A DNA stretch of 64,000 nt from Vermamoeba vermiformis (lineage: Eukaryota): contig JBEWZL010000003.1 of NCBI GenBank assembly GCA_045837725.1, forward strand, positions 124,001 through 188,000, given 5' to 3'. Under the pieces are notes generated by a model. That model was not told the DNA's origin. It saw only the letters and a list, made by a program, of their open reading frames with translations, and made no database searches. Below, in pieces: positions 1 through 31,628 of the stretch (positions are counted from its first letter, which is position 1; each line of letters begins with the position of its first letter). A program made the position numbers and the translations under genes.

Positions 1-741
1 TTGATTGACTTCGATCACGCGTGCAAACTCAGCGAAGGTTTGGCCAATAATTTTTTAAATTTTCAAATGACGGGTTTAACCGACATTTTTTTCAAGTATT
101 AGGACATAGTTTTGGTACTCGAGGACATCGCGCACCTGAGCTTATTTTGACGGGAGAATACACCATCGCTGCTGAAATGTTCAGCTTTGGCGTTTGGCTT
201 ATTGAATGGGTACATTTTTTGGATATCGTAATAGTTAATATATCACTAACGATTGTATTTAGTTCTTTCAGAAGTCTGTTTCCGCCATTTTGGCGAAATT
301 CCGGCCAAACTTCTCTATCGAGCATGATGAACTCTATGCAGTTGACATGTTATTGCAAGTATTTGAAGAGTAAGGCCTACTTGAATATAGAAGTCTCATT
401 ATTAGTTGTCTCTAATGTGTTCGATCAGATATGCGGATTCAAAGCCGTATTCGGAGCTGTGGCCAAGTCATTACAGCGCATTAAATCGAATTGGAAATTA
501 TTCTGCGCCATCAAGCTATTACATTAACGAAGAACAGTTCCAGAATTTACGTGTTATAATTCGAGATTTATTGAACAAAGATCCATCGAAAAGACCGAGC
601 TGCAAAGAATTGCTGACAGATCCGAAGTACAGCGTATTTTTGGACACAACCAAGCCGACAGATTTAGTTATTCCAATCGCAAAAAGAGAAACAATCACTA
701 AACACGTTATCTATTCTCCGAATTACAAACGGAATAAATGA
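1..741 (+). CDS. Protein kinase, 3' part (5' end outside window); DFD instead of DFG
   Basis: Hand-spliced exons give LIDFDHA...GTRGHRAPEL...EMFSFGVWL...DLLNKDPSKRPSCKELL (kinase subdomains VII-XI); stop at 741. Confidence 0.8.
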
Positions 742-980
742 CACAAGCGCTATTAGTTTAGCTTTAATCGCGATCTCCATCAGATCTGGCGTCGAAAAAT
801 TTTGTCGCCATTGATCGTAATTACTTCATTCATATCTATATTTGGAAATGGCTCTGCAATGGATATTGTTCATCAGAGTAAGGCAATGACCCCAAATTTC
901 ACTTCGAAACTGATTTCCGTACGTTGAAAGGTCGGGTCCATAACGAGGTCTATTCCTAAAGATTGAGTACATGACACGCT

Positions 981-2999
981 CTATTTATTTCTTTTTACGG
1001 GCATGACAGGCATACCGTCAACAGGTCCGACAGTAATCGAGGGTCGTTTTTCAAGTTTGTAATTCGGTCGCAGCTTGAACTCAAACTGTTTGAACAATGA
1101 CCCGAGCACCACGTACTGCTCCATCATTGACAGGGACTTGCCAATGCAATCACGTTGTCCCTTGCTGAATGGCGTGTACAACGAAGGACGTCGTTTTTCA
1201 CGCTCTTCTTTCGTGAACCTGACCATAATTCGTTATTGCCTTATATGGAAATGTATAGGAGGTGTCGGGGAGTACCTTTCGGGATTGAAAACTTCGGGGT
1301 TGGGATAATACTGCGGGTTGCGATGAATCGAGTATGAGGAGTAGATCACGGGCGAACCTTTTTTGAATTTGTAGCCTTTGATTTCAACGTCTTCGTCTAA
1401 AGTACGGCCAGTACCGCCTGCTGACGGGTGTTTTCTTAGCGACTCCTGTAAGTATTGTTAGTTAAAAGTGGCAAATTTGAACCGTCTCGTATGACACGTG
1501 TCATCAAAATGTCACTTCAAAATTGACACGTGTCAATAATTTTTTCATTTGACAACGGTTTGACCGGTTGATTACGCACCTTGATAATCATATCTAAGTA
1601 CTCTAAGTCCTTGAATTGATTGGCATCAGGCATGTCATTGTCACCGAGCACGCGATCCAGTTCGTCTTGAAGTCGTTTCAGGATTGGTGGATTCTGCGTG
1701 AGTTCATAGACCGTAAATGCCATTGAATGTGCTGTAGTGTCGTGACCAGCAAATAAAAATGTAATAACATTGTCGCGAATTACTTCGTCGCTCAAGCCCT
1801 CGCCGGTCTCTGGATCCTTTGCCGTCAACAAAAGTTCAAACAAAGTCTTGCCCGAGTTTAGCGTGCTCTATAAATAGAACGTTAATTCATTTCCTAATAT
1901 GGTTAAGTTTTTGGAAAGTCCATCTGGTCAAATTTCAATTTGATTTTTCGTACCTTTGGACGCTGTCTATAATCGTCAATAATTTTTTGAATTATCACAT
2001 GCAATCGCTTGATGTATTTGCGGCATTTAATTGACGACGGGAAAATTGGCAAATATAAAATCGGAACTCGTACTGCTCGCAAAAGAAAGCTGATTCGAAA
2101 TAATGCGTGATTAGTATTAATAGCGTTATTAATATTAATATTGAACGTACTCAAGACTATATCCGATTAAATGAATTATTTCGTTGTCTTTTTCTTCCTC
2201 CAAACTGTTGAACTCGACATTGAACGCTGATTCTCCGATAAAATCAAGCGTTAAACGCACAAAAAAAGCATCAATATCAACCTATAGTATTATATTATAA
2301 TTAATAAGTATTATTGGCTTTTTCTTATTGCTAAAATTTAAAAACTTACGTATTCTGCTGTTTCAGCTTTATGCGCTAATTTGTCTAGCAATACTCGCAG
2401 CTTATTTTGTAAAATAGGTATTTGATTGCGAATATTTGTAGGAGAAAAGGCTGGTAAGATCGTGCGTCGTTGCATTTTCCAGTCTCTAAAGCTCATCTCG
2501 GTTAAAAGCCCATGTCCCATGAGTTTTGCAAGGCCGTAGTACTATTTTTAAAATTAATAAGGCTTATGTTATCGTATCGTTATAAGCTTACAAAGGAAGG
2601 CAAGCGAGGCGTGTAATTATCCATTAAAAAATATTCTGTCAGATCGGGATCTGCGATATGAATTAAAAACGGCTTTCCAAACCAAGAAAAAATTTGGAAC
2701 ACGGGTCCATATTGCTCGTGTAATCGCAATCTCCATTCCGCAAAGTCCCTGCGCCTATAATGATTGCAATTATTTTCTTTGCATTATTTAATCAAATAAT
2801 TAAATAGCTGAAACAATTAATAATTCGTTTTAAAGACTTACTTTATATGCCTAAGTGCTTCAAGCATGTTTCCATAGAAAAACGATGGCGGTGGGCCTGG
2901 GATCCGCCTTTTCCAATCCATAAACTCGAAGTATCTTTTGATTATGAAGAGCACGACAATCGTCGGCAATAATATCCATAATATCGTCGAAAAATGCAT
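981..2999 (-). CDS. Cytochrome P450, multi-exon
   Basis: N-terminal TM followed by PGPP; I-helix FLFAGHDTTAH; K-helix ESLR; PER motif; heme motif PFSKGQRDCIG. Confidence 0.95.
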
Positions 3000-3537: not shown

Positions 3538-5932
3538 ATGGAACACGAATATTATTTTAATATTGATATCGTTCCAAGTGATATTTGGAGGCTGATCTTC
3601 AAACAATTGCGAACAATGACAGATCTTCGTTCTTTCAACTCGATCAACAAATCATGCCATAATTTCAGCAAATACTACATGCAAAAGCAAAAATTATGGC
3701 TTGGGATATACAGATCTCGCTTTGGATTGGCTGACACGAAATTTGTTTCTCCGATCTTGCCTTCAAAACTGTTTCATCTCAAAAAAATGCTTCAGCCAAG
3801 CCTTAATATTAGCAAAAATAATATTAACTTCAATCAACCACTCAAGATAGTCGTTATTGGCGATGGTAAATAGAAACGCAAAACGCGCGCGATAGTTTGA
3901 AACGATCGGGCGGCACAGGTCATTTATAAACCGTTGATAAAATAGGCGGAATAGGAAAGACATCATATACAAAACTTGTTTCTGGTGGGCACGTAAGTAA
4001 TAAGCAGATCTCGACAGAAAGTATTTAATTAATTAATTATTTTTTTCTTTATATCAGGTCGACAAGCGCTATATTCCAACGGTGGGCTGCGAAGTACATA
4101 AATTCACTGTCACTTCAAAATTACGACAGTTCCAAATCGTTCTTTGGGACACAGGTACACGAGTCTCGATCCATTAAAAAAATTTAAATATACTAACAGC
4201 ACTATTTCAGCTGGTCCTGAGAAATTTGGGGGGTTACGAGATGCCTATTAGTAAGTATTTGTAATTATATTATCGGTTATTAACATTACGCAAAGCATTG
4301 GCGCGGTTGGAGCGATAGTTTTATCGGATGTGACCAGCAAAATCACCATCAATAACATTCCCCATTGGCTGCGAGATATAAGGTAATGTTTATTTATAAG
4401 TAATCTAATGACGTAGTCTAATGAAAAATTAACAGGCGTGTTTGTGAGAATATTCCAGTTGCCGTTTGCGTCAACAAAATTGACACGCACATTGAAGATC
4501 CAAAACCAAGTCTTATCACTAGATTTAGATCGGCAATAACTATTGCGTGTAAAAAGAACGTGGTATGTCTCATAATAATTTTATTAATCGATTGTACGGT
4601 CGTTCTTACATTATTGTTTGGTCAGATGTTCTGCGAGATGTCAAACTGGGCCAAATTCAGCGTTCATGAACCGTTGATATGGATTCTACAGCAGCTGATG
4701 GGGTGAGTAAAATTCATACATAAATGTTATTATAAGTCTATTTATAGATGAGATTTATTGACACGAAGTTGTAGGGATGACACGCTCGAGTTGACATTTC
4801 CAGAAATGGTTAGCGAGAGACACGGGGTGGTCAATGCGGACATGATGAACGCGGCATTAAAAGCACGAAGTAAACTACTGGAATATCACATTGAAGACGA
4901 AGATGATTTTACTGGCGATCTTATTCTGACGACACAACAAGCTACTGACGCTTCGAAGGCGTTTTACGCAAAAAAAACGCAGAAAAAACGCAAAGTACTT
5001 GAAAACGTGATTCAATCGTGCTCACCACGAGTAAAAAATGTGATGGAAGCGTTGTTGACAGGTGTCAGAACTGGACCCGTACTCAGCACAAAAAACCGTA
5101 AGAATACTCTTAACTCTTAATACGATTATTATAGCTAATATTTAATGCACAAAAGATCATCCGTTGCAACAGCCATCGTTGTTATTCGTTGAAGGCCTCG
5201 AATGTCAAGAATTTCATGCCATCGAAAAGTTCAACTTTGTGCAACCACTGCTCGAGTTCTACAAACAACACGAAGACGCAATCATCATGGAGACTCAGAG
5301 CTTGATGGGACTTAGTACGTGCATAACACTACACGTGATATTATATGATAGTAACTGTTCTCTGTGTGCTTCAAGCAGGTGGTCTCGATGACATGACGTC
5401 ATCAGTCAATGGCTCGTGGAAATCGTTCTACTTTGTCGAGTCAGGACAAATCAATCGCACGAGCGCTGAAACAGCACCGTTGTTGACGCACATGCTGCGT
5501 GGTGTGTCTTCGCTGATGACATGTAGCTTCGGATACGCGTACATTTCGATCCTCGGACCACACTCACACATCACTCCTCATTGTGGCCCATGCAACATCA
5601 AGTAAGCACTCGGACCTATATCATAACGCATACTTATTGGTGCAATTAGACTGCGGTGTCATCTGCCGTTGATCGTGCCAAGTGAAGGGTGCACAATCAG
5701 AGTCGGATCCACGACCAAATCATTCAAACAAGGAGAGGTATTGTACTATTATAATTATAGTAATTTAATGGCATGCTCATGCACTATTTTTTAGCTGCTG
5801 ATCTTCGATGATTCGATTGAACATGAAGTGCGTAACGACAGTTCCTCACCGCGTGTCATTCTTTTGTTTGACATTTGGCACCCTGATTTGACACTCGATG
5901 AAATCAACAGCTTCAATACATACTTTTCTTAA
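3538..5932 (+). CDS. F-box / Ran-like GTPase / aspartyl-asparaginyl beta-hydroxylase fusion (copy 1)
   Basis: Spliced GT-AG exons give F-box-like IDIVPSDIWRLIFKQL; GDGGIGKTS; YIPTVGCEVH; WDTAGPEKFGGLRDAYY; RVCENIPVAVCVNKID; LMGDDTLEL...IEDEDDF (Ran-like tail). The same open exon (4775-5097) continues toward the AspH-like HITPHCGPCNIKLRCHLPL...FDDSIEHEVRNDSSSPRVILLFDIWHP. Confidence 0.85.
4618..4802. repeat. Near-identical inverted copy of 23958-24142 (exon + intron of F-box-Ran paralogs 1 and 3)
   Basis: Visual alignment shows ggtcagatgttctgcgag...aaaattcatacataaatgttattataagtcta...gttgacatttcca shared, including the intron. Confidence 0.85.
5019..5840. repeat. Near-identical inverted copy of about 27487-28306 (AspH module including introns)
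   Basis: ORFs 5164/5345 (+) and 27967/27720 (-) are almost identical; the introns also align. Confidence 0.92.
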
Positions 5933-6125: not shown

Positions 6126-7950
6126 TTATTTCAACTTTGCGTGGTACAAGTACGGCATTTGCTCCATGAGCTCTGTACCGTATTTCTGGTCAAGAAATGC
6201 TAGGAAATAAAGCCGTTGAAGTGACGTAAGGTGAGTGAAGCATTTGTACGGTAAATTGGAGCTCGAAAACACTTCCAGCGAGGTTAAATTTTGCAGCGCT
6301 GTCAACGAAATAATCTTTTCCGTTGATTTCACGTGTGTTATACTTAAGCTCTCTAATGTCGTTATACGGACTAAACTTTGCCAAAATTCTTCTTGTTGTT
6401 CGTTTGGTGCTTGTAACGTTTTCAATGAAAGTCGTTCAAAAACTTGGGGAATAATATCTATTTGGAATCTGGTGTCCAATCGGGTCAATTTTGACAGTGA
6501 AGAAAACGTTTCGAACATTTCGGATGTAATTGAAGGCAGCTCTAGACTTTCCAAATTAGGCAATTTTGAAAAGTCAACGAATGTCTCCTGAAAAACGTTC
6601 TTCGTTTGATATGAATCGATTTTGAGTTTCTTCAGTTTGTGCAAATTTTTTACGCATGTCAAACTTGCACGTACTGTGTTTGTGAAAACCTTGAGATCCG
6701 TCAATTGCGTCAAATTCCCGATAATTCCATAATCGATTGGAACTCCATCATAATCAGAAATTTTTAGGCTTCTGCAGAGCTGTAAATCGTGTGATATCGT
6801 CTATGCTATTTGTCGCTGTAATTGAGACTCCTAATGACGTCAAAGTGACAGGCAACAACTTGACGTAATCGAATGGTCTGTTGCTCCGAATGTCAAAGTC
6901 TAATAACCTTGATAATGCTGTCAAAAACTCTAATGCGTCAGTGGGATTTTCTTCTCCAAACATTGGATCTAAAACCAAACGTGTCAAATTCGTCAACGAA
7001 GTCCAGTGACGTGTTACATCTAGCTTAAGGCAGCCATTAACGGTCAAATCTTCCAGGGCTAATTGACCAATCCCTGTCAAGTACTCGACGTAGTCAGTCG
7101 GATCTCCAATAATCAAGGACTTTAGTGCTGTCAATGCGTACAGCGGGGGCTGGATGTCATCCATTGACGAGATCCACAGCACCAACTCTTTCAATCGATG
7201 AGCTTGTGCAAGTGATTTTGTATCGTCTTTATTGCGGCTGTTTAATAGCATTACTGAAAGATATGTCAAATGACTGATACTTGGAATTTTTGAAAAATCG
7301 TCAAGCGATCCGAGGTGCAGATGTTGCACTTTGGTGTTCGAATTTAATGCTTTGACTGCTTCTGCGATATTTGCTTGGTTTAATTCTACATAAGTGAGAT
7401 TATGAAATGATGATAAGAGCTGAGAATAATTGCTATGAAAAAATTGCAAGGACTGTAGATTCGTCAATCGAGTCAGATCGGACATTAACAGGATTTCTTC
7501 CCCTGAATAATTTGTATCGCAAGATATTTTGGTAATATTCGTGAGCGCTGACAGGTGATTGATGGCTTGAGGTGTGAGATCAATTGTTTTTGTGAAGGTG
7601 AGGCTGATTGGTTTGTCGTATCTTGACAACGTCTGAACAATCTCTGGCATCATTCTCGATCGTGTAAAATACAATGTAAAAAAAAAAGAAATCAAACAAG
7701 TGGGGAGATGATTGGTTTGTCGTATCTTGACAACGTCTGAACAATCTCTGGCATCATTCTCGATCGTGTAAAATACAATGTAAACTGAGAATAATCAATA
7801 ATCTCAAATAATCTGGTGCATGTTTGACGAAGATATCGTTTTGATTTCTCATCCGTGCAAGAGTTGATAAGTTGAATTATCTCAACTGGTAATTGCTCCT
7901 AAAATTATTATTAGAATTATTAAAATATTTTGGCTTTTTATTTATACCAT
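6126..7950 (-). pseudogene. F-box-like + LRR protein, disrupted by a +1 frameshift (~6771) and a 104-bp duplication/insertion (7605-7784); may be assembly error
   Basis: ATG-only first exon, intron, then EQLPVEIIQLINSCTDEKSKRYLRQTC (F-box-like) and LTxLTNLxxL repeats. N- and C-termini are similar to the 25427-27214 gene. Confidence 0.75.
7605..7784. repeat. Perfect 76-bp direct repeat (7605-7680, 7709-7784) with a 28-bp spacer
   Basis: tgattggtttgtcgta...aatacaatgtaaa occurs twice. Confidence 0.95.
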
Positions 7951-23867: not shown

Positions 23868-25192
23868 TTAACATAATTTATTGTGTTGCCTTCGTATGTT
23901 TATAGCTTCTCGTATTAATTCTAAATTCACTTGGCCGTGCAATTCGTTTGACATCGGTGGAAATGTCAACTCGAGTGTGTCATCCCTACAACTTCGTGTC
24001 AATAAATCTCATCTCCAAATAGACTTATAATAACATTTATGTATGAATTTTGCTTACCCCGTCAGCTGCTGTAGAATCCATATCAATGGTTCATGAACGC
24101 TGAATTTGGCCCAGTTTGAAATCTCGCAGAACATCTGACCAAGCGAAAATGTGCCAGCGTCAACCACAACATCGCAAACATTACAATTCATTTAATCTTA
24201 CCACATTCATGCGCTTTTTCATCATTCTTACGAGAATGCCTATCTCTCTAGTGATTTTTTTCTTGTCATCGACTTCGCTGTCCTCTTTGAAAGGCAGATC
24301 CAGTTTGTTCATGCACACGGCAATCGGCAAGACATTTTCGCTGCAATAGCGACTGGTTGTATATTATTATTATTTATCTCGATTTAACATAATATACTTA
24401 CCTCCCACTGCGGATCCAGTTTGGAACGTTTCTATTGGTTGTCCTATTTGTGTCACAAAAAACTATAAGGCCGGAAGCTCCCAAACTAATCAATGAATTA
24501 GTATTTGCATATTTAGAAGAAAATTATTCTTACTAACATAAATCCCTTTCTTGTCCAGATCTCGTTACACCTGCCAAGCGGATTTGATTAATTATGCTGC
24601 TTATTTTGGCTAAGATTATTACCTATATCCCAAAGATCGATCACAAAATCTCTATTGGGTGATTTTATAACGAATTGGAACTGATTGCTGCCCATTGTAA
24701 CCTAAGTTCGCCGATCTGAGCATTGATTAGAGAACCGGCTATTAATAGCATTTACCGTACTTGATTTCCTGAAACTAGCCTTGAGAATGTTGTTTTCCCT
24801 GTTTTTCCTGTTGGTTGGAAGCCTAGTGAACCACATCCAGCGATCGGAAAGATCTACGAAAGTTCTTACCGTCACCAATGACAATGATTTTAATTTGCTT
24901 ATTGAAATCGAATATCTCTGCTTAGGCTAAGCAATGGTTGCATTTGTTTGAGCTGGAATAGTTTTGAAGGCAAGATCAGCGAATAAATATTCGGGTAATT
25001 CATTGCAAATCGAGATTTGAGTGCTTCATGATATAATTTTTCTTGTTGCATCTCGTGTTTACAATAATAATTGCACAATTTACGGAGAAAGAGGAGAGTT
25101 CGACGATCTGTCAAAGCGCCCAGCAGATTGAAGATCAGCCTCCAAATATCTCCCGGTACGCAGTCAATATTTAAATAATATTCGTGTTCCAT
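23868..25192 (-). pseudogene. F-box / Ran-like GTPase (copy 3), no hydroxylase domain; frameshift near 24911 (pseudogene or consensus error)
   Basis: MEHEYYLNIDCVPGDIWRLIF; after the shift KIIVIGDGKTGKTTF, IDLWDIGVTRSGQE, RNVPNWIR, CMNKLD, LTGDDTLELTFPP...HNKLC*. Confidence 0.75.
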
Positions 25193-25426: not shown

Positions 25427-27214
25427 ATGGATATGGATATTATACCGCAAGACTTATGGCCAATAATAACCAGCTTTATGGACGATAAAACAAAACGGCA
25501 GATGAGACTCGCAAACACAAAATGGTTCAACGCGATTAAATACAATAACTTCAGATTATATTTTACACGAAAAGAAGATGTAGCAACAATAACAGACCGA
25601 TTATCAAAATATTCTTGGCCGATCAAGGTAGAATTTAAAAAACCAAAAATTGATGATGCTTTAGACGTTATTCAGCACTTGTCTAAGTTAACCAACTTAA
25701 CGGAATTATATCACGATGAACAAGTTGAGTGGCAGAATTCTATTTCGCAAGATCAGTGGATGCATCTCTCAACTCTCACGAACATTGAAGTTTGGTCTTT
25801 TTTAAACAGTGGACCAGTACCTATGTCGTTGCCACTTTTCGGCGTAACAGTACCTAACGAACTATTGTTTAAATTCCCCAAATTAACTCACTGGCAAGAT
25901 TCTAAAGAAGCGGTTAAATATTTGACCAATTTAAATTCGTTGCATTTGGATTCCGATCAGTCATACGAGCGTAATTCAGAATCAAATAAGGCAACGTGGA
26001 TCGTAGCATTATTAGCAAATCCGGAAAAATTAACCCAACTCCACGTCGGCACATCCATAAACCAAGCAGATGGCTACGAAGTTTTGAGCCGTTTGACAAA
26101 CCTGAAAGAACTTCACCTTTCAAATAACTGCAATGATATTACAGACCTCTCTCAATTAAAAACACTAGAATATTGCGACCTTTCTGGCCGATTCATTCCG
26201 TCACTTAGAGCAAACACGAATCTGACGAAATTGCGGATTTGGATTCCAGCTGGCTGCTCAATAGACACAAACCAGTTAACAACTTTGACAAATCTTCATA
26301 GTTTAGAGATGATAGTGTTCCCAAATGATGAGCCAGTACAATTCAACTTTTTGTCGCATCTGATCCAACTCCGAAATTTCCGTTTGGACAATAGATCCGA
26401 CTACAATAATACCTCTACACATATACCTTCATCAATATACCAATGCTTATCACCAACATTGAAAGTTTTAAAGACATCAGGCGATATTTCATTGGATCTA
26501 GCAATGATTACGCATCTGACGAATCTCGAAGAACTCAACAATCCAAGACATATTCAATATTTATCCGTATTTACCAAGTTGAAAGTATTGCATGGTTTCT
26601 ATTCACACGAAGATCAGGATTGGCGAGCACTTGGAAAATTGACAAAATTGGAACAGCTCGTCTTTTCAATGAACAATTTTAGTGGCAATATTTCAGACTA
26701 TAAATTACCAGAAATTTCAGGACTTGTTAAACTAAGAAATATGTCATGGACCTCTGATAGCCTTCCCAACCAGTTGATGCACGGATTGCAATTTCTGACA
26801 GATCTGCAAAGTTTGAATATCCACAGCCGACAGCGCGATGAAAAACCTCTAGTTCATTGGGAGGTTTTCAGCGAATTAACGAATTTGACAAATCTGTCTT
26901 TATGGATTAAAACAGATTACGATGAAATGTTTTGGCGAAACCTTGCTCCATTGACGAACATTCAAAGCCTAAAAATATTTCCTACCAGCATTGGTGGCAA
27001 TGATGGAATATTGACGATGACAGCTTTCAGAAATTTGACAGAATTGTTCATTGAAAATGAACCGGGTGATGATTTCGATGGCTGTCATTTTACGGCACTA
27101 ACTTCACTCCAATTAATTTCATTCTATGGCATCGGCAACAGATTAATACACAAAAAAGAAACGTTATTAAAGACTATGCCTCACTTATTGTGGTATAACT
27201 ACATGGACATTTAA
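25427..27214 (+). CDS. Intronless F-box-like + LRR protein
   Basis: 595-aa ORF; IIPQDLWPIITSFMDDKTKRQMRLANTKW followed by LSxLTNLxxL repeats. Confidence 0.88.
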   Translation: MDMDIIPQDLWPIITSFMDDKTKRQMRLANTKWFNAIKYNNFRLYFTRKEDVATITDRLSKYSWPIKVEFKKPKIDDALDVIQHLSKLTNLTELYHDEQVEWQNSISQDQWMHLSTLTNIEVWSFLNSGPVPMSLPLFGVTVPNELLFKFPKLTHWQDSKEAVKYLTNLNSLHLDSDQSYERNSESNKATWIVALLANPEKLTQLHVGTSINQADGYEVLSRLTNLKELHLSNNCNDITDLSQLKTLEYCDLSGRFIPSLRANTNLTKLRIWIPAGCSIDTNQLTTLTNLHSLEMIVFPNDEPVQFNFLSHLIQLRNFRLDNRSDYNNTSTHIPSSIYQCLSPTLKVLKTSGDISLDLAMITHLTNLEELNNPRHIQYLSVFTKLKVLHGFYSHEDQDWRALGKLTKLEQLVFSMNNFSGNISDYKLPEISGLVKLRNMSWTSDSLPNQLMHGLQFLTDLQSLNIHSRQRDEKPLVHWEVFSELTNLTNLSLWIKTDYDEMFWRNLAPLTNIQSLKIFPTSIGGNDGILTMTAFRNLTELFIENEPGDDFDGCHFTALTSLQLISFYGIGNRLIHKKETLLKTMPHLLWYNYMDI

Positions 27215-27389
27215 GAATAAACTTTTCATTTTCGCAATCGAATGTTTTTTTCTAGAGAAAAAGGAAATAATCGTAAGACAACAAGTAAACGCCATAATAG
27301 TGTCTAATGTACCTCTTGCTTTATGGCCAAGAGAACCAGGTTAGTGAACGACGACCCAGAGTCTGTGATGAGATGTATATTTGACGTCC

Positions 27390-29732
27390 TTAGCGCTTAA
27401 AGTACCCCCTAAAGCTGTTGATTTCATCGTCTGTCATATCGGGATGCCAGATGTCAAAAACAAGATGGACAGTTGGCGTGTCAGAGCTGTCATTACGCAC
27501 TTCATGTTCAATCGAATCATCGAAGATCAGCAGCTAAAAAAATAGTGCATTAGTATATAATTAATCACTATAATAATAGGACAATACCTCTCCTTGTTTG
27601 AATGATTTGGTCGTGGATCCGACTCTGATTGTGCACCCTTCACTTGGCACGATCAACGGCAGATGACATCGCAGCCTAATTGACCCAATAAGTATGCGTT
27701 ATGATATAGGTCCGAGTACTTACTTGATGTTGCATGGACCACAATGAGAAGTGATGTGTGAGTGTGGTCCGAGGATCGAAATGTACGCGTATCCGAAGCT
27801 GCATGTCATCAGCGAAGACACACCGCGCAGCATGTGCGTCAACAACGGTGCTGTTTCAGCGCTCGTGTGGTTTATTTGTCCTGACTCGACAAAGTAGAAC
27901 GATTTCCACGAGCCATTGACTGATGATGTCATGTCATCGAGACCACCTGCTTGAAGCACACAGAGGTCAGTTACTATCATATAATATCACGTGTAGTGTT
28001 ATCCACGTACTAAGTCCCATCAAGCTCTGAGTCTCCATGATGATTGCGTCTTCGTGTTGTTTGTAGAACTCGAGCAGTGGTTGCACAAAGTTGAACTTTT
28101 CGATGGCATGAAATTCTTGACATTCAAGGCCTTCAACGAATAACAACGATGGCTGCTGCAATGGATGATCTTTTGTGCATTAAATGTTAGCTATACTAAT
28201 CGTATTAGGAGTTAAGAGTATTCTTACGGTTTTTTGTGCTGAGTACGGGTCCAGTTCTGACACCTGTCAACAACGCTTCCATCACATTTTTCACTCGTGG
28301 TGAGCAAGATTTGGTAACAATTTCAAGAACTTGGCGGTTTTCTCCAAAGTCGCTGGTGCCGGTTGATCGGTGCTGACTTCCCGCGGTTGACAAATTGTCA
28401 TCAGAGTCGTCTTCAACGTCTTTAATATGCCGTCGCAACATCTTTTTATGCGCGAAAATTGCTGCTTTCATAATTTCGGGCTCTATTTTGGCTTGCAAAT
28501 CAGACATCAACGGAGGAAATGTCAAATCGAGAGTGTCATTGCTGCAACATGTCAATGTTAGAAAAATAGTCCTATATAGTCTATATTGAAATATTTATAT
28601 TAGTTAGGCGTACCCGGCCAACTTCTGTAGGATCCACGTCAACGGTTCATGAACGCCAAATTTCGCGTAACTAGACATCTCGCAGACCATCTGACAGCGA
28701 TGTTATAACCTCGTATACCTTATAAAACAGATCTTACTATATTATTTTTGCTTGCAAATCTCAAAACAGCAGCAATTCGGTTGACATAATAGCGAAAAGC
28801 ATTATCTGGCTGCAGATCCATTTTACTAATGCAAAGAGCAATCGGAATATCGGAACAAACACGCCTATATTTATAAATTAGACGACATTTATATGCAATA
28901 ACAAATTACCTGACATCTTTTATCCAGTAATTGCGGAAATAACTAAGATCTGACGCAGAAACTAAAAATATTGCGCCAGCGGCTCCAATACTATTGATAA
29001 AATTAGTTTTCGATTAATTAGACTAGGTATTACAATTATCATACTAATAACCGTCGCGCAGCACTCCAAATTTCTCTTGACCGTCTGCGATCCAAAATTA
29101 ATAAAATAAACGAAACAACGAGAGGGTGATTACGTGTATCCCAAAGATCGATATTAAACTCTCTGTCGATTGATGAAACTTTGAAACGGTGTACGCTGAC
29201 ACTAACAGTCTTTAAATAACTTGGCTTTAAAAATTTGGTCAGATCTTGTTGCAGGAGTTACATATACTCACCGTAGAATCGGGTGAATGGCATGATATTA
29301 ACTTCGTAAATGTTGTTTTGCCGGCGCCGCCTGTTAATGGAACTTTGTTTGAGTACTGCGCCAGATTTGTTGTCAACGGGACTTACTCTCGCCAACAACA
29401 ATGATTTTCAATGGCTTATTTGTGTCTGTATATTCGGTAGCCATATTAAGGGATAATCGCTCTATTTGTTTGAGCTTGAACAATTTTGAGGGCAAGATCA
29501 AGGAATAAATATTTGTGCCGTTTAGTCCAAACCGAGATCTGATTAGTCCATGCCATATTCTCTCTTTTTGCATACAATATTTACTATATTTATGCCATGA
29601 TTTATTGACACGGTTGAAAGAGCAAAGATCTGTCAAAACTTGAAGTTCCTTCAAGATCAACCTCCAAATATCACTTGGAACAATATCAATAATATTACTA
29701 ACGAGGTCATAATTAGGATTTTCGTGCTCCAT
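27390..29732 (-). CDS. F-box / Ran-like GTPase / aspartyl-asparaginyl beta-hydroxylase fusion (copy 2)
   Basis: [80 protein letters not shown]...FDDSIEHEVRNDSSDTPTVHLVFDIWHP...FKR*. Confidence 0.83.
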
Positions 29733-29994: not shown

Positions 29995-31628
29995 TTAAAT
30001 AAATTCTACGCCTTCGTATCTTAAAGAAACATAAGTTAGCATAAAGGAAGTAATTGCGATCGGATCTACGTACTTGACTGAATCTGGAATTTTTTCTTCA
30101 TCCATCAACACTTCTCCCGTTTTAATATCAAAGACCATAATATCTGTATTTAAGTAAGAATAAATATTTGCACTTCATCAGTGTAATTACGACATCAACT
30201 TACACGTAGCGATGTCTCCTTTGTATTCTTCGCTCTTCAATGCTACAATTTCATTCTCGCGCCACGGGACATATTTAAATGACGAGAATCCATGCGTTTT
30301 GATCAGTTTCTGTTAGTAGGTTAAGTTAAGGAAATTTCAAAAATTGAAAATTTTTGCAAGTGCGAAGGGTGCACTTTACGCGTCCTAATCTCGCTTAGTA
30401 ATATAGTTATAAGGATACACCCACTTCGGAAACAGTGACCTTGCTGAATGCTTCATTAACTTGGATAGCTTTGTTCGCGCCGCGCTCTTCATCGGCAGCA
30501 TCATCGTAGCTTTCCTGCGAGAACCTACGAGGCAAAAACAACCAAGATCTGTCCACGGGATTCCAGCCAACAGCTTCGTGTACCATATAGGCTGGGTACT
30601 CTGTGGCAGTCTGTTCGCGCAAATAATTGTAACGGTCGGTCCAATTAATATGCTTAATTCTTCCGTCGCGATCGATGGTTTTGATCCAACAAGGATCGTA
30701 ATTGAGAATTGTCTGAAAGTTCATGTTAGTAATTTAAATAGTATGTATAATACTATGCACGTACGCCTTTATTATCCGTCCATTCTTTACCAAGGGATCC
30801 AACGTGCAAAACGTTGTCTTTGACTGTCAGCCACTCGCACTGCATCCGCGAATTAATTTTCGTTCATAATTCGAGGAAATAAGCGTACCTTAAAACCTTT
30901 ATCCTTATTTCCGTCGCCAGTAGCCAATACATATCGAGGCACAACAGTTTTTTCCTTGATGATTTCGTAGACTGGAAAAATAACCGTTAAAAAAATAATT
31001 AATAAATTCAAGATTACTAATACGCACCGATGCCAGTTCGATCGTCACAAGTCAATAACATATCGTTAAAATAAATAAGCTCGGATAATTCCATGCCTCG
31101 GCCACCTTCGTTGTATTTGGAGGTGATCTCGTACTGTCAAAAATTAGTATTAATTTTGATTAATATTAGGAATATTATTGTACGCAAAAGGGATGCAAGA
31201 TCATGTCGCGATCCAAATTTAAAAATATTTTTCGTTTTTCGGTTTCTTACCTCATCTGTCCACTTGATGGAATACTTCCTCGTGCCCGCGCTGCGAGTTA
31301 ATTTTCCATGTCTTAATTTGCCCTTCCATTTGTCTTCACCAACTTTTGACGCTGTATCCATATCTGACACAATCGCGATCTTGTATTCGGTCGAGCTTTC
31401 TTCGTAAGCCAAATAGGACCTCTGAAGCAGGTATCTAACTACATCTGTATCGCTTGGAGAATCTTTTGAAGTACTCCTTGACATTACAGCAAGAAGAACG
31501 AAGATGCCGATCACGGCTGCAGAAAGCAAGACGAATCTGCCTTTACGACCGAAGATCCCTGTAACTCTTTGCCATAACGAAGAATTCGATCGGGCCGAAT
31601 ACATTGCCTCGTCTTCTGGAGTGAGCAT
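29995..31628 (-). CDS. CANT1: Calcium-activated nucleotidase (CANT1/Cimex-type apyrase), type II membrane anchor
   Basis: N-terminal TM; IAIVSDMD, GRGMELSEL, CDDRTGI, GFKCEW, YMVHEAVGW, FLPRR, HGFSSFKY, ALKSEE, YEGVEFI*. Confidence 0.92.

Follow-up and report, generated by a model that had tools for sequence, protein, structure and literature searches.

An F-box-like, Ran-derived GTPase and AspH-type hydroxylase fusion gene in a Vermamoeba-like amoeba

The window analysed in this study is a 64,000-nucleotide stretch of Vermamoeba vermiformis DNA (contig JBEWZL010000003.1, positions 124,001–188,000), which is eukaryotic, AT-rich (39.7% G+C), contains no N and has genes with short introns. A gene on its forward strand (3538–5932, hereafter copy 1) encodes in one polypeptide an F-box-like N-terminus, a GTPase derived from Ran and a 2-oxoglutarate (2OG)/Fe(II) oxygenase of the AspH type, and it represents a real multi-copy gene family with three modules per polypeptide, which this Vermamoeba-like amoeba (Tubulinea) possesses. 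That the fusion gene itself is real can be taken as nearly certain. As to the function, the best reading, placed by us above the receptor model of the original prediction, is that of a protein hydroxylase guided by its Ran-like module and tied to Skp1 and the Skp1–cullin–F-box (SCF) ligase, and we judge its chances to be about even.

Gene model and transcripts of the fusion

According to the model built from exon ends, the coding region of copy 1 (3538..5932, + strand) consists of 12 exons with 1734 coding nucleotides, that is 577 codons and a stop, its length is divisible by 3 and there is no internal stop. Exons 1–6 occupy positions 3538–3865, 3946–3992, 4058–4154, 4211–4250, 4296–4382 and 4436–4562, and exons 7–12 positions 4626–4702, 4775–5097, 5156–5314, 5379–5601, 5650–5737 and 5795–5932, all on the + strand. 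The introns (46–82 nt) begin with GT and end with AG in 11 of 11 cases. Canonical splicing into one gene, as well as the start at 3538, the end at 5932 and a linking exon at 4775–5097 (exon 8 of the model), had been proposed in the original prediction, and all these boundaries proved exact; the motifs quoted there (PEKFGGLRDAYY, RVCENIP, GDDTLEL, EDEDDF, HITPHCGP, LRCHLPL, FDDSIEHEV and FDIWHP) are all present in the translation. Translated singly, exons 10, 11 and 12 score 46.6, 29.9 and 41.1 bits against the Pfam hydroxylase profile PF05118 (cutoff 22.6) and match its positions 34–97, 100–127 and 129–157. Since these positions are consecutive, splice sites at three junctions receive independent support, and the combination of eleven in-frame canonical introns with ordered profile matches is far beyond chance.

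Transcripts of relatives were found to run through the same junctions. When exon 8 alone was used to search for longer proteins, one match was registered among 290 candidates, namely a Trinity open reading frame (ORF) from the Vermamoeba vermiformis data of EukProt (EP00029); it begins at the exon 7 Met and includes the hydroxylase up to its end. In two Vermamoeba ORFs no stop separates Ran from the hydroxylase: P0002 (isoform i5, 375 aa) begins with exon 5, and P0400 (isoform i3, 568 aa) comprises the complete F-box-like/Ran/hydroxylase arrangement. Ran runs into the hydroxylase also in two ORFs from metatranscriptomes (P0390, 482 aa, from a 1854-nt contig, and P0394, 434 aa, from a 1877-nt contig) and, again without a stop, in P0243 (350 aa), and the two modules are joined in P0388 (470 aa) and P0254 (376 aa) of Rhizamoeba saxonica. 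Pfam families Ras and Asp_Arg_Hydrox were registered in all four of the long ORFs scanned (P0400, P0390, P0394 and P0388), with 145.8 bits for the hydroxylase of P0400, and no family of tetratricopeptide repeats (TPR) was found by Pfam in these four. An exhaustive HMMER search with P0002 gave 6670 matches, the best 150 of which were listed; 10 of them were scanned by Pfam and showed Ras with hydroxylase in two cases (P0243 and P0254), TPR with hydroxylase in four, hydroxylase alone in three and Ras alone in one.

RNA reads were placed on the gene from runs X7 and X9–X11, with runs X1–X6 and X8 (5–16% of sampled words) excluded. Contigs of X7 lie on copy 1 at 3544–3704 and 5015–5097, and one more splices position 5601 to 5650, which is the GT..AG intron 10. 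Runs X9, X10 and X11 provided 34, 41 and 32 reads, respectively, of which 32, 38 and 32 are 95–99% alike, most lying only partly on the gene. Three X10 reads of a paralogue pass from the end of exon 7 (4702/4703) into exon-8-like sequence, and at the join of exons 8 and 9 there are five X11 reads with a variant end of exon 8 and four loose ends in X9.

One could suppose that two adjacent genes, F-box-Ran and a stand-alone hydroxylase, were wrongly joined by the splice model. Retention of intron 8 would introduce a stop at 5118–5120, and the Vermamoeba isoform ORF P0005 (350 aa, F-box-Ran) does stop within the linker. Against such an artefact, a single frame of exon 8 covers both the tail of Ran and the conserved helix that precedes the oxygenase. 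The exon 8/9 junction is crossed by no fewer than six transcript ORFs of different origin, and the part aligned to the human oxygenase domain starts about 40 residues ahead of the first Met that follows this junction. The artefact is therefore largely refuted and by now scarcely credible: two separate genes were rejected because of the single frame of exon 8 and the junction-crossing ORFs, and the claim of one gene stands, since transcripts from related organisms connect the tail of Ran with the hydroxylase.

The Ran-derived and hydroxylase modules

The Ran-derived GTPase domain of copy 1 is encoded by exons 1–8 (3835..4910, +; residues ~100–313); its end is formed by the C-terminal helix and, at 4893–4910 (+), the acidic tail EDEDDF. 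In P0400 residues 101–313 align to Ran 11–215 of 216, acidic tail included, with E 3e-50, compared with E 1e-18 for the best non-Ran GTPase (Rab35), and copy 1 aligns to Ran in the same way; derivation of the GTPase from Ran, as originally proposed, is thereby upheld. In the search with P0005, for which 120 matches were listed, the 119 besides the query cover the GTPase part only (47–77% of the query), and those named among the matches listed are nearly all Ran/Gsp1 or GTP-binding nuclear protein; neither PF05118 nor an F-box family appears in the precomputed Pfam column of these 119.

Shared with Ran/Gsp1 are the P-loop, the switch I Thr, DTAG, the switch II segment EKFGGLRDxYY, NKxD (NKID in copy 1) and the basic KKN patch, and the likeness goes on through the C-terminal helix to the acidic tail. 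Few eukaryotic proteins that stand alone are as conserved as Ran; the module described here shares with canonical Ran only ~40–49% identity, sits on a very long branch and is set between two other modules. At the place of the catalytic Gln69 of Ran, according to the alignment, copy 1 has the codon CCT (4216..4218, +), which encodes Pro (WDTAGPEKFGG). The same Pro is found in P0400, P0390, P0394 and Rhizamoeba P0388, whereas copy 2 of the window has Gln. In addition, G5 (SAK) is replaced and 8–9 residues are inserted after NKxD, so that the intact G1–G5 series with catalytic Gln69 expected of the Ran family is absent from copy 1. Loss of the catalytic Gln in Ras-like GTPases abolishes hydrolysis, and, judging by its sequence, the Ran-like module probably stays in a GTP-like state that is not switched off by hydrolysis.

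A tree of 34 rows, made by a quick method with 27 of the 119 Ran matches from the P0005 search, united five Vermamoeba-type rows into one starred clade; the stem of the Ran part measures 5.12 changes per column. The row of Rhizamoeba, which we take to belong to a different order of Tubulinea, and that of P0243 are long branches of unsure placement (the former with an end branch of 9.6).

The rest of exon 8 (4911..5097, +) encodes a linker of ~60 residues with a basic cluster KKTQKKRK, which looks like a nuclear localisation signal, and a conserved helix SCSPRVKNVMEALLTGVR in front of the oxygenase. A similar segment and helix precede the domain in the stand-alone hydroxylase P0004; this part of the linker therefore belongs to the hydroxylase module. 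P0004 and P0244 (JGI, ~1-kb contigs) are the nearest proteins without Ran and share 42–43% identity with the C-terminal module of the fusion.

The AspH-type oxygenase domain itself is encoded by exons 9–12 (5156..5929, +), with PF05118 on exons 10–12. Its counterpart in P0400 aligns to human AspH with E ~1e-31, and the gap-free alignment of the domain over 135 residues has E ~1e-32. Residue mapping revealed in copy 1 the equivalents of all six positions considered, Ser668, His679 (5579–5581), Arg688, His690, His725 (5822–5824) and Arg735 (5852–5854, all on the + strand). In the available text of PMC6817910, His679 and His725 are described as the two-His metal site, Ser668, Arg688, His690 and Arg735 as contacts of 2OG and of the substrate carboxylate, and R735W as a disease substitution that likely disturbs 2OG binding; the TPR domain of AspH is said there to take part in substrate binding. 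With PF05118 above its cutoff and the active-site residues intact, the C-terminus of copy 1 is an AspH-type 2OG oxygenase, as had been predicted, and it is likely, from these residues, to be active. Compared with P0400, the hydroxylase is also the best conserved module of copy 1 (85% identity, against 77% for the N-terminal region and 67% for the Ran part).

The two-His iron site, Ser668, Arg688, His690 and Arg735 are thus common to the fusion and human AspH. Unlike human AspH, the fusion has no membrane anchor or TPR in its sequence or in Pfam, Lys666 is not kept, and copy 2 is devoid of Arg735. Inspection of the N-terminal sequence and the Pfam scans, without a dedicated predictor, showed neither signal peptide, nor membrane anchor, nor TPR. 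Since anchor and TPR are missing, location in the lumen of the endoplasmic reticulum (ER) is not expected, and EGF-domain substrates of the AspH kind are unlikely. TPR is the usual partner of an AspH-type oxygenase, as follows from the Pfam column of the database and from four of the ten proteins scanned. Next after amoeba-type proteins, the hydroxylase is closest to alphaproteobacterial TPR-AspH proteins (31–47% identity), in a database dominated by bacteria and with human AspH also at E 1e-31. One more protein, P0007 (271 aa, NCBI/JGI, from a 4325-nt contig of an unrelated organism), has its AspH-type domain in front, with the first part of a Rab-like GTPase behind it at the cut C-terminus; this reverse order could be a second independent pairing of hydroxylase and GTPase, or a read-through of two genes.

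Copies, gene conversion and spread of the family

The same architecture recurs in copy 2 (27390..29732, − strand), as the original prediction had stated for this interval: its model has 12 exons, GT..AG at all introns and 582 aa, its layout matches copy 1 exon for exon, and eight of the 12 exons are identical in length. The GTPase motifs of copy 2 are more worn than those of copy 1 (GESGAGKT, SKMD), with the catalytic Gln retained. A third copy, overlooked earlier, was revealed by tblastn with relatives at 23871..25192 (−) and comprises the N-terminal motif and a degenerate Ran-like domain. Its exon 1 has a frameshift near 24905–24925, switch II is degenerate, a stop follows shortly past the DDTLEL helix (DDTLEL…NKLC), there is no acidic tail, and no trace of a hydroxylase was detected further downstream by tblastn with P0002. 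Probably copy 3 is either a short form comparable to the Vermamoeba ORF P0005 or a pseudogene.

Comparison of copies 1 and 2 in steps of 100 bases revealed a tract of ~0.8 kb (5038..5800 against ~28270–27500) with 95–99% nucleotide identity, introns included, while the remainder of the two copies is only 36–79% identical. This tract over the hydroxylase exons is a recent gene conversion, and the high identity of the two hydroxylases is due to this conversion, which involved the introns as well, and not to selection alone. Over the final 100 bases of coding sequence identity goes down to 68%, and it is here that the equivalent of Arg735 was lost in copy 2.

Scanning of metagenome contigs, from which 80 loci were kept, gave one locus (L001, 5643 nt) where residues 1–568 were matched in intron-separated pieces; the other 79 of the 80 contain the hydroxylase part only. 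The flanks of L001 are syntenic with the window (1–2261 against 32206–29977, 73% identity; 5018–5632 against 20241–19673, 71%), so that its gene corresponds to copy 2 as an orthologue by position and belongs to a related species. The interval of the window with copy 3, a gene with leucine-rich repeats (LRR) and copy 2 has its counterpart in a single F-box-Ran-hydroxylase gene of L001, which points to a local expansion in the lineage of the window.

These data bear on the proposal that the family is young and partly decaying, that the three-part combination has hardly any function under selection, if any, and that the family persists through gene conversion and duplication. The frameshift and truncation of copy 3, the worn GTPase motifs of copy 2 and its lack of the Arg735 equivalent, the very long branch of the Ran part (stem 5.12) and the conversion origin, introns included, of the identity between the hydroxylases all agree with decay. 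However, the frames are intact over 12 exons in copies 1 and 2 and, by the tblastn pieces, in L001; Rhizamoeba has Ran joined to the hydroxylase at 25–33% identity with the catalytic residues kept; and expression is seen in several transcriptomes. We consider this explanation very unlikely.

As far as can be judged by sequence, the full architecture is present in Vermamoeba-type organisms, and the Ran-hydroxylase part also in Rhizamoeba and in the source of P0243. Among viral contigs 58 pattern matches were obtained, none of them a relative, and there was no sign of a giant-virus copy. In the vicinity, a tRNA-Phe (GAA) gene of 93 bases, a size that could accommodate an intron, adjoins copy 2 at 30310–30402 (+). 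Elsewhere in the window the segment 52001–56000 has a G+C content of 45.5% (37–42% in the other parts), and Rfam gave 0 matches on the window.

The F-box-like head and possible function

The conserved N-terminal region of copy 1 (3538–3822, +; residues 1–95) contains the F-box-like motif (3565..3717, +; residues ~10–60, DIVPSDIWRLIF...INKSCH...LW). The motif, which can be written VPxDIWRLI…L.DL…[IV]NKS[CW], stands at the position expected for an F-box, and AlphaFold predicted helices there at residues 13–26, 29–39 and 46–60 (pLDDT 32–60). With the Pfam profiles PF00646 and PF12937 (cutoffs 24.3 bits for F-box-like and 20.5 bits for F-box) the N-terminus of copy 2 reached E 0.0022 and 18.2 bits for F-box-like, and E 0.0088 and 16.4 bits for F-box, both sub-threshold. 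In the ESM Atlas the best named clusters for the head were all F-box (top score 0.88), which can serve as a lead only, and the whole P0400 found no usable match there. The identity of the head to P0400 (77%) exceeds that of the Ran part (67%) and was also counted for the F-box. Judging by this sequence pattern, the head is a probable docking motif for a ubiquitin ligase and rather probably binds Skp1, although the F-box is the weakest part of the architecture.

Two LRR genes of the window, at 6126–7898 (−) and 25427–27215 (+, with a stop-free frame of 595 codons), have N-termini with a similar divergent F-box-like motif; their N-terminal F-box matches are sub-threshold (E 0.0021 and 0.047), and their heads resemble that of the fusion (tblastn E 0.015). 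An F-box head followed by LRR is the classic F-box-LRR layout.

The original prediction knew of no described F-box-Ran-hydroxylase. For the three-part protein this holds, since no description of it was found in the literature searched, but a pairing of F-box and 2OG oxygenase does have a precedent in Dictyostelium JcdI. F-box and 2OG oxygenase also share one polypeptide in KDM2A/KDM2B (FBXL11/FBXL10), which are JmjC histone demethylases with LRRs, and the PHD-VHL system couples hydroxylation to ubiquitylation by means of separate proteins, VHL not being an F-box protein; both provide only analogies to the fusion. AspH-type hydroxylases are familiar from the ER lumen and bacteria. The attachment of such a hydroxylase to a Ran paralogue appears to be new, and so do the combination of all three parts and its occurrence in Tubulinea.

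The best functional analogy is JcdI (Fbxo13), which, according to the available text of PMC9485057, is an amoebozoan protein with a divergent F-box-like sequence at the N-terminus and a JmjC non-haem Fe/2OG protein hydroxylase at the C-terminus. The same text reports experiments showing that JcdI binds Skp1 via its divergent F-box-like motif, and there the F-box seems to control the level of the enzyme itself (PMC9485057). The two proteins are likened by description only: the oxygenase of JcdI is of the JmjC/JmjD6 type and, as described there, has no GTPase, whereas that of the fusion is of the AspH type. The Pfam scans of the long ORFs gave PF05118 and not JmjC, so that the arrangement of the JcdI/JcdH type, a JmjC domain flanked by H1/H4 segments as described in the same text, is absent from the fusion. 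By analogy, the fusion may at most work like JcdI and is not a member of its type.

Based on this anatomy one can assume the following mode of action. The protein would be a cytosolic or nuclear hydroxylase of Asp/Asn type, as no signal or anchor is visible in it. Its Ran-like module sits where AspH and most of the bacterial homologues carry the substrate-binding TPR module and, owing to this position, would be the likeliest recognition module. Locked in the GTP-like state, it may bring a Ran-binding partner (candidates are a karyopherin, a RanBP1-type domain, NTF2, RCC1 or RanGAP) to the active site of the oxygenase. The F-box-like head would tie the enzyme to Skp1/SCF, and this tie may either set the level of the enzyme itself, as in JcdI, or lead to ubiquitylation of the bound partner. 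Recruitment of the substrate by the Ran module, taken separately, is put forward tentatively, as falling somewhat short of probable. The most far-reaching version, in which a karyopherin or a RanBP is caught by a Ran mimic locked with GTP, an Asp/Asn of this partner is hydroxylated by the AspH domain and the F-box passes the partner to SCF, is a long shot.

The same anatomy underlies the model of the original prediction, according to which the protein is an SCF receptor with Ran as a bait for karyopherins or for RCC1-repeat effectors of pathogens, and hydroxylation is coupled to ubiquitylation in the manner of PHD/VHL. Replacement of Gln by Pro would suit a constitutive RanGTP-like bait, and the neighbouring genes with F-box-like heads and LRR form a typical context for a family of substrate receptors. 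However, the F-box fails the Pfam cutoff as well as the PDB profile and fold searches, and, according to the available text of PMC9485057, the oxygen phenotype of JcdI needs the enzyme activity and not the F-box. Nothing ties the family to Legionella, whose LegG1 had been given as an example of such effectors. On balance the receptor model is doubtful.

It is also conceivable that the protein is a self-contained regulated enzyme, in which the Ran-like domain senses a nucleotide or a partner, for instance by a tail switch gating the oxygenase, and the head sets abundance via Skp1. Preservation of the Ran tail, the basic patch and switch II, the direct passage of the tail into the pre-oxygenase linker, the precedent of JcdI and the highest conservation of the hydroxylase (85% to P0400) are in line with such regulation. 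At the same time, Pro at the catalytic site probably leaves no GTPase cycle to be sensed, and the interdomain confidence of the structural model is low, and so we regard this explanation as distinctly unlikely.

Returning to the Ran-guided hydroxylase tethered to Skp1/SCF, several groups of observations weigh against it. The first concerns the head. At E<=10 copy 1 has no Pfam F-box match, P0400 has none at E<=0.1, and of the five N-termini examined with the F-box profiles 0 reach the cutoff, with no match at all in copy 1, copy 3, L001 and P0400. A profile of the N-terminus found no F-box among PDB sequences, giving two chance-level matches (E 0.81 and 0.98). The confidence of AlphaFold is low (mean pLDDT 52.8 for the head alone, 32–60 in the full model), and Foldseek with this low-confidence model of the head gave 0 matches at E<=0.001; its seven matches, all with E above 3, were rejected as meaningless. 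Of the domains originally expected on the spliced protein, PF05118 is confirmed by profile in copy 1, and Ras together with PF05118 in the long ORFs of relatives, while the F-box remains below cutoff; the claim of an F-box N-terminus retains the motif, the predicted helices and the sub-threshold match of copy 2, and fails by the Pfam cutoff, the PDB profile and Foldseek alike.

The second group concerns the other modules. Pro in switch II could wreck the switch instead of locking it, and SAK is lost; the domain arrangement in the full model is unreliable (AlphaFold pTM 0.50). In copy 2 the Arg735 equivalent is replaced by Thr (…DTPTVHLVFDIWHP), therefore not every copy may be an enzyme, and there are short forms without hydroxylase (P0005, with its ORF ending in the linker, and copy 3). 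The third group concerns transcripts. Residues 1–278 of P0400 are exactly those of P0005 and its last 143 exactly those of P0002, and because of these identical segments P0400 may be a Trinity mosaic of paralogues. RNA on copy 1 itself is thin, amounting to the three short X7 contigs, and the X9–X11 reads, being 95–99% alike and only partly placed, come from paralogues or another strain. A transcript bridging the Ran tail and the hydroxylase, expected in the original prediction, was obtained in the sense that the ORFs of relatives read across, whereas no read or contig of the runs placed on copy 1 bridges 4775–5200.

With a spurious F-box or an inactive enzyme, the fusion would be a curiosity of its lineage. 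If, instead, the Ran module is a recognition device, the family would offer an entry to Asp/Asn hydroxylation in the cytosol or nucleus and to the control of nuclear transport factors by oxygen and 2OG, and it would extend the theme of F-box-tethered dioxygenases in oxygen sensing of protists. Should the full sequence of capture, hydroxylation and transfer to SCF turn out to be true, oxygen or the metabolic state would directly adjust the traffic between nucleus and cytoplasm in these amoebae, and with this family one would have, for the first time, a class of cytosolic substrates of an AspH-type enzyme and a Ran paralogue acting as a substrate receptor.

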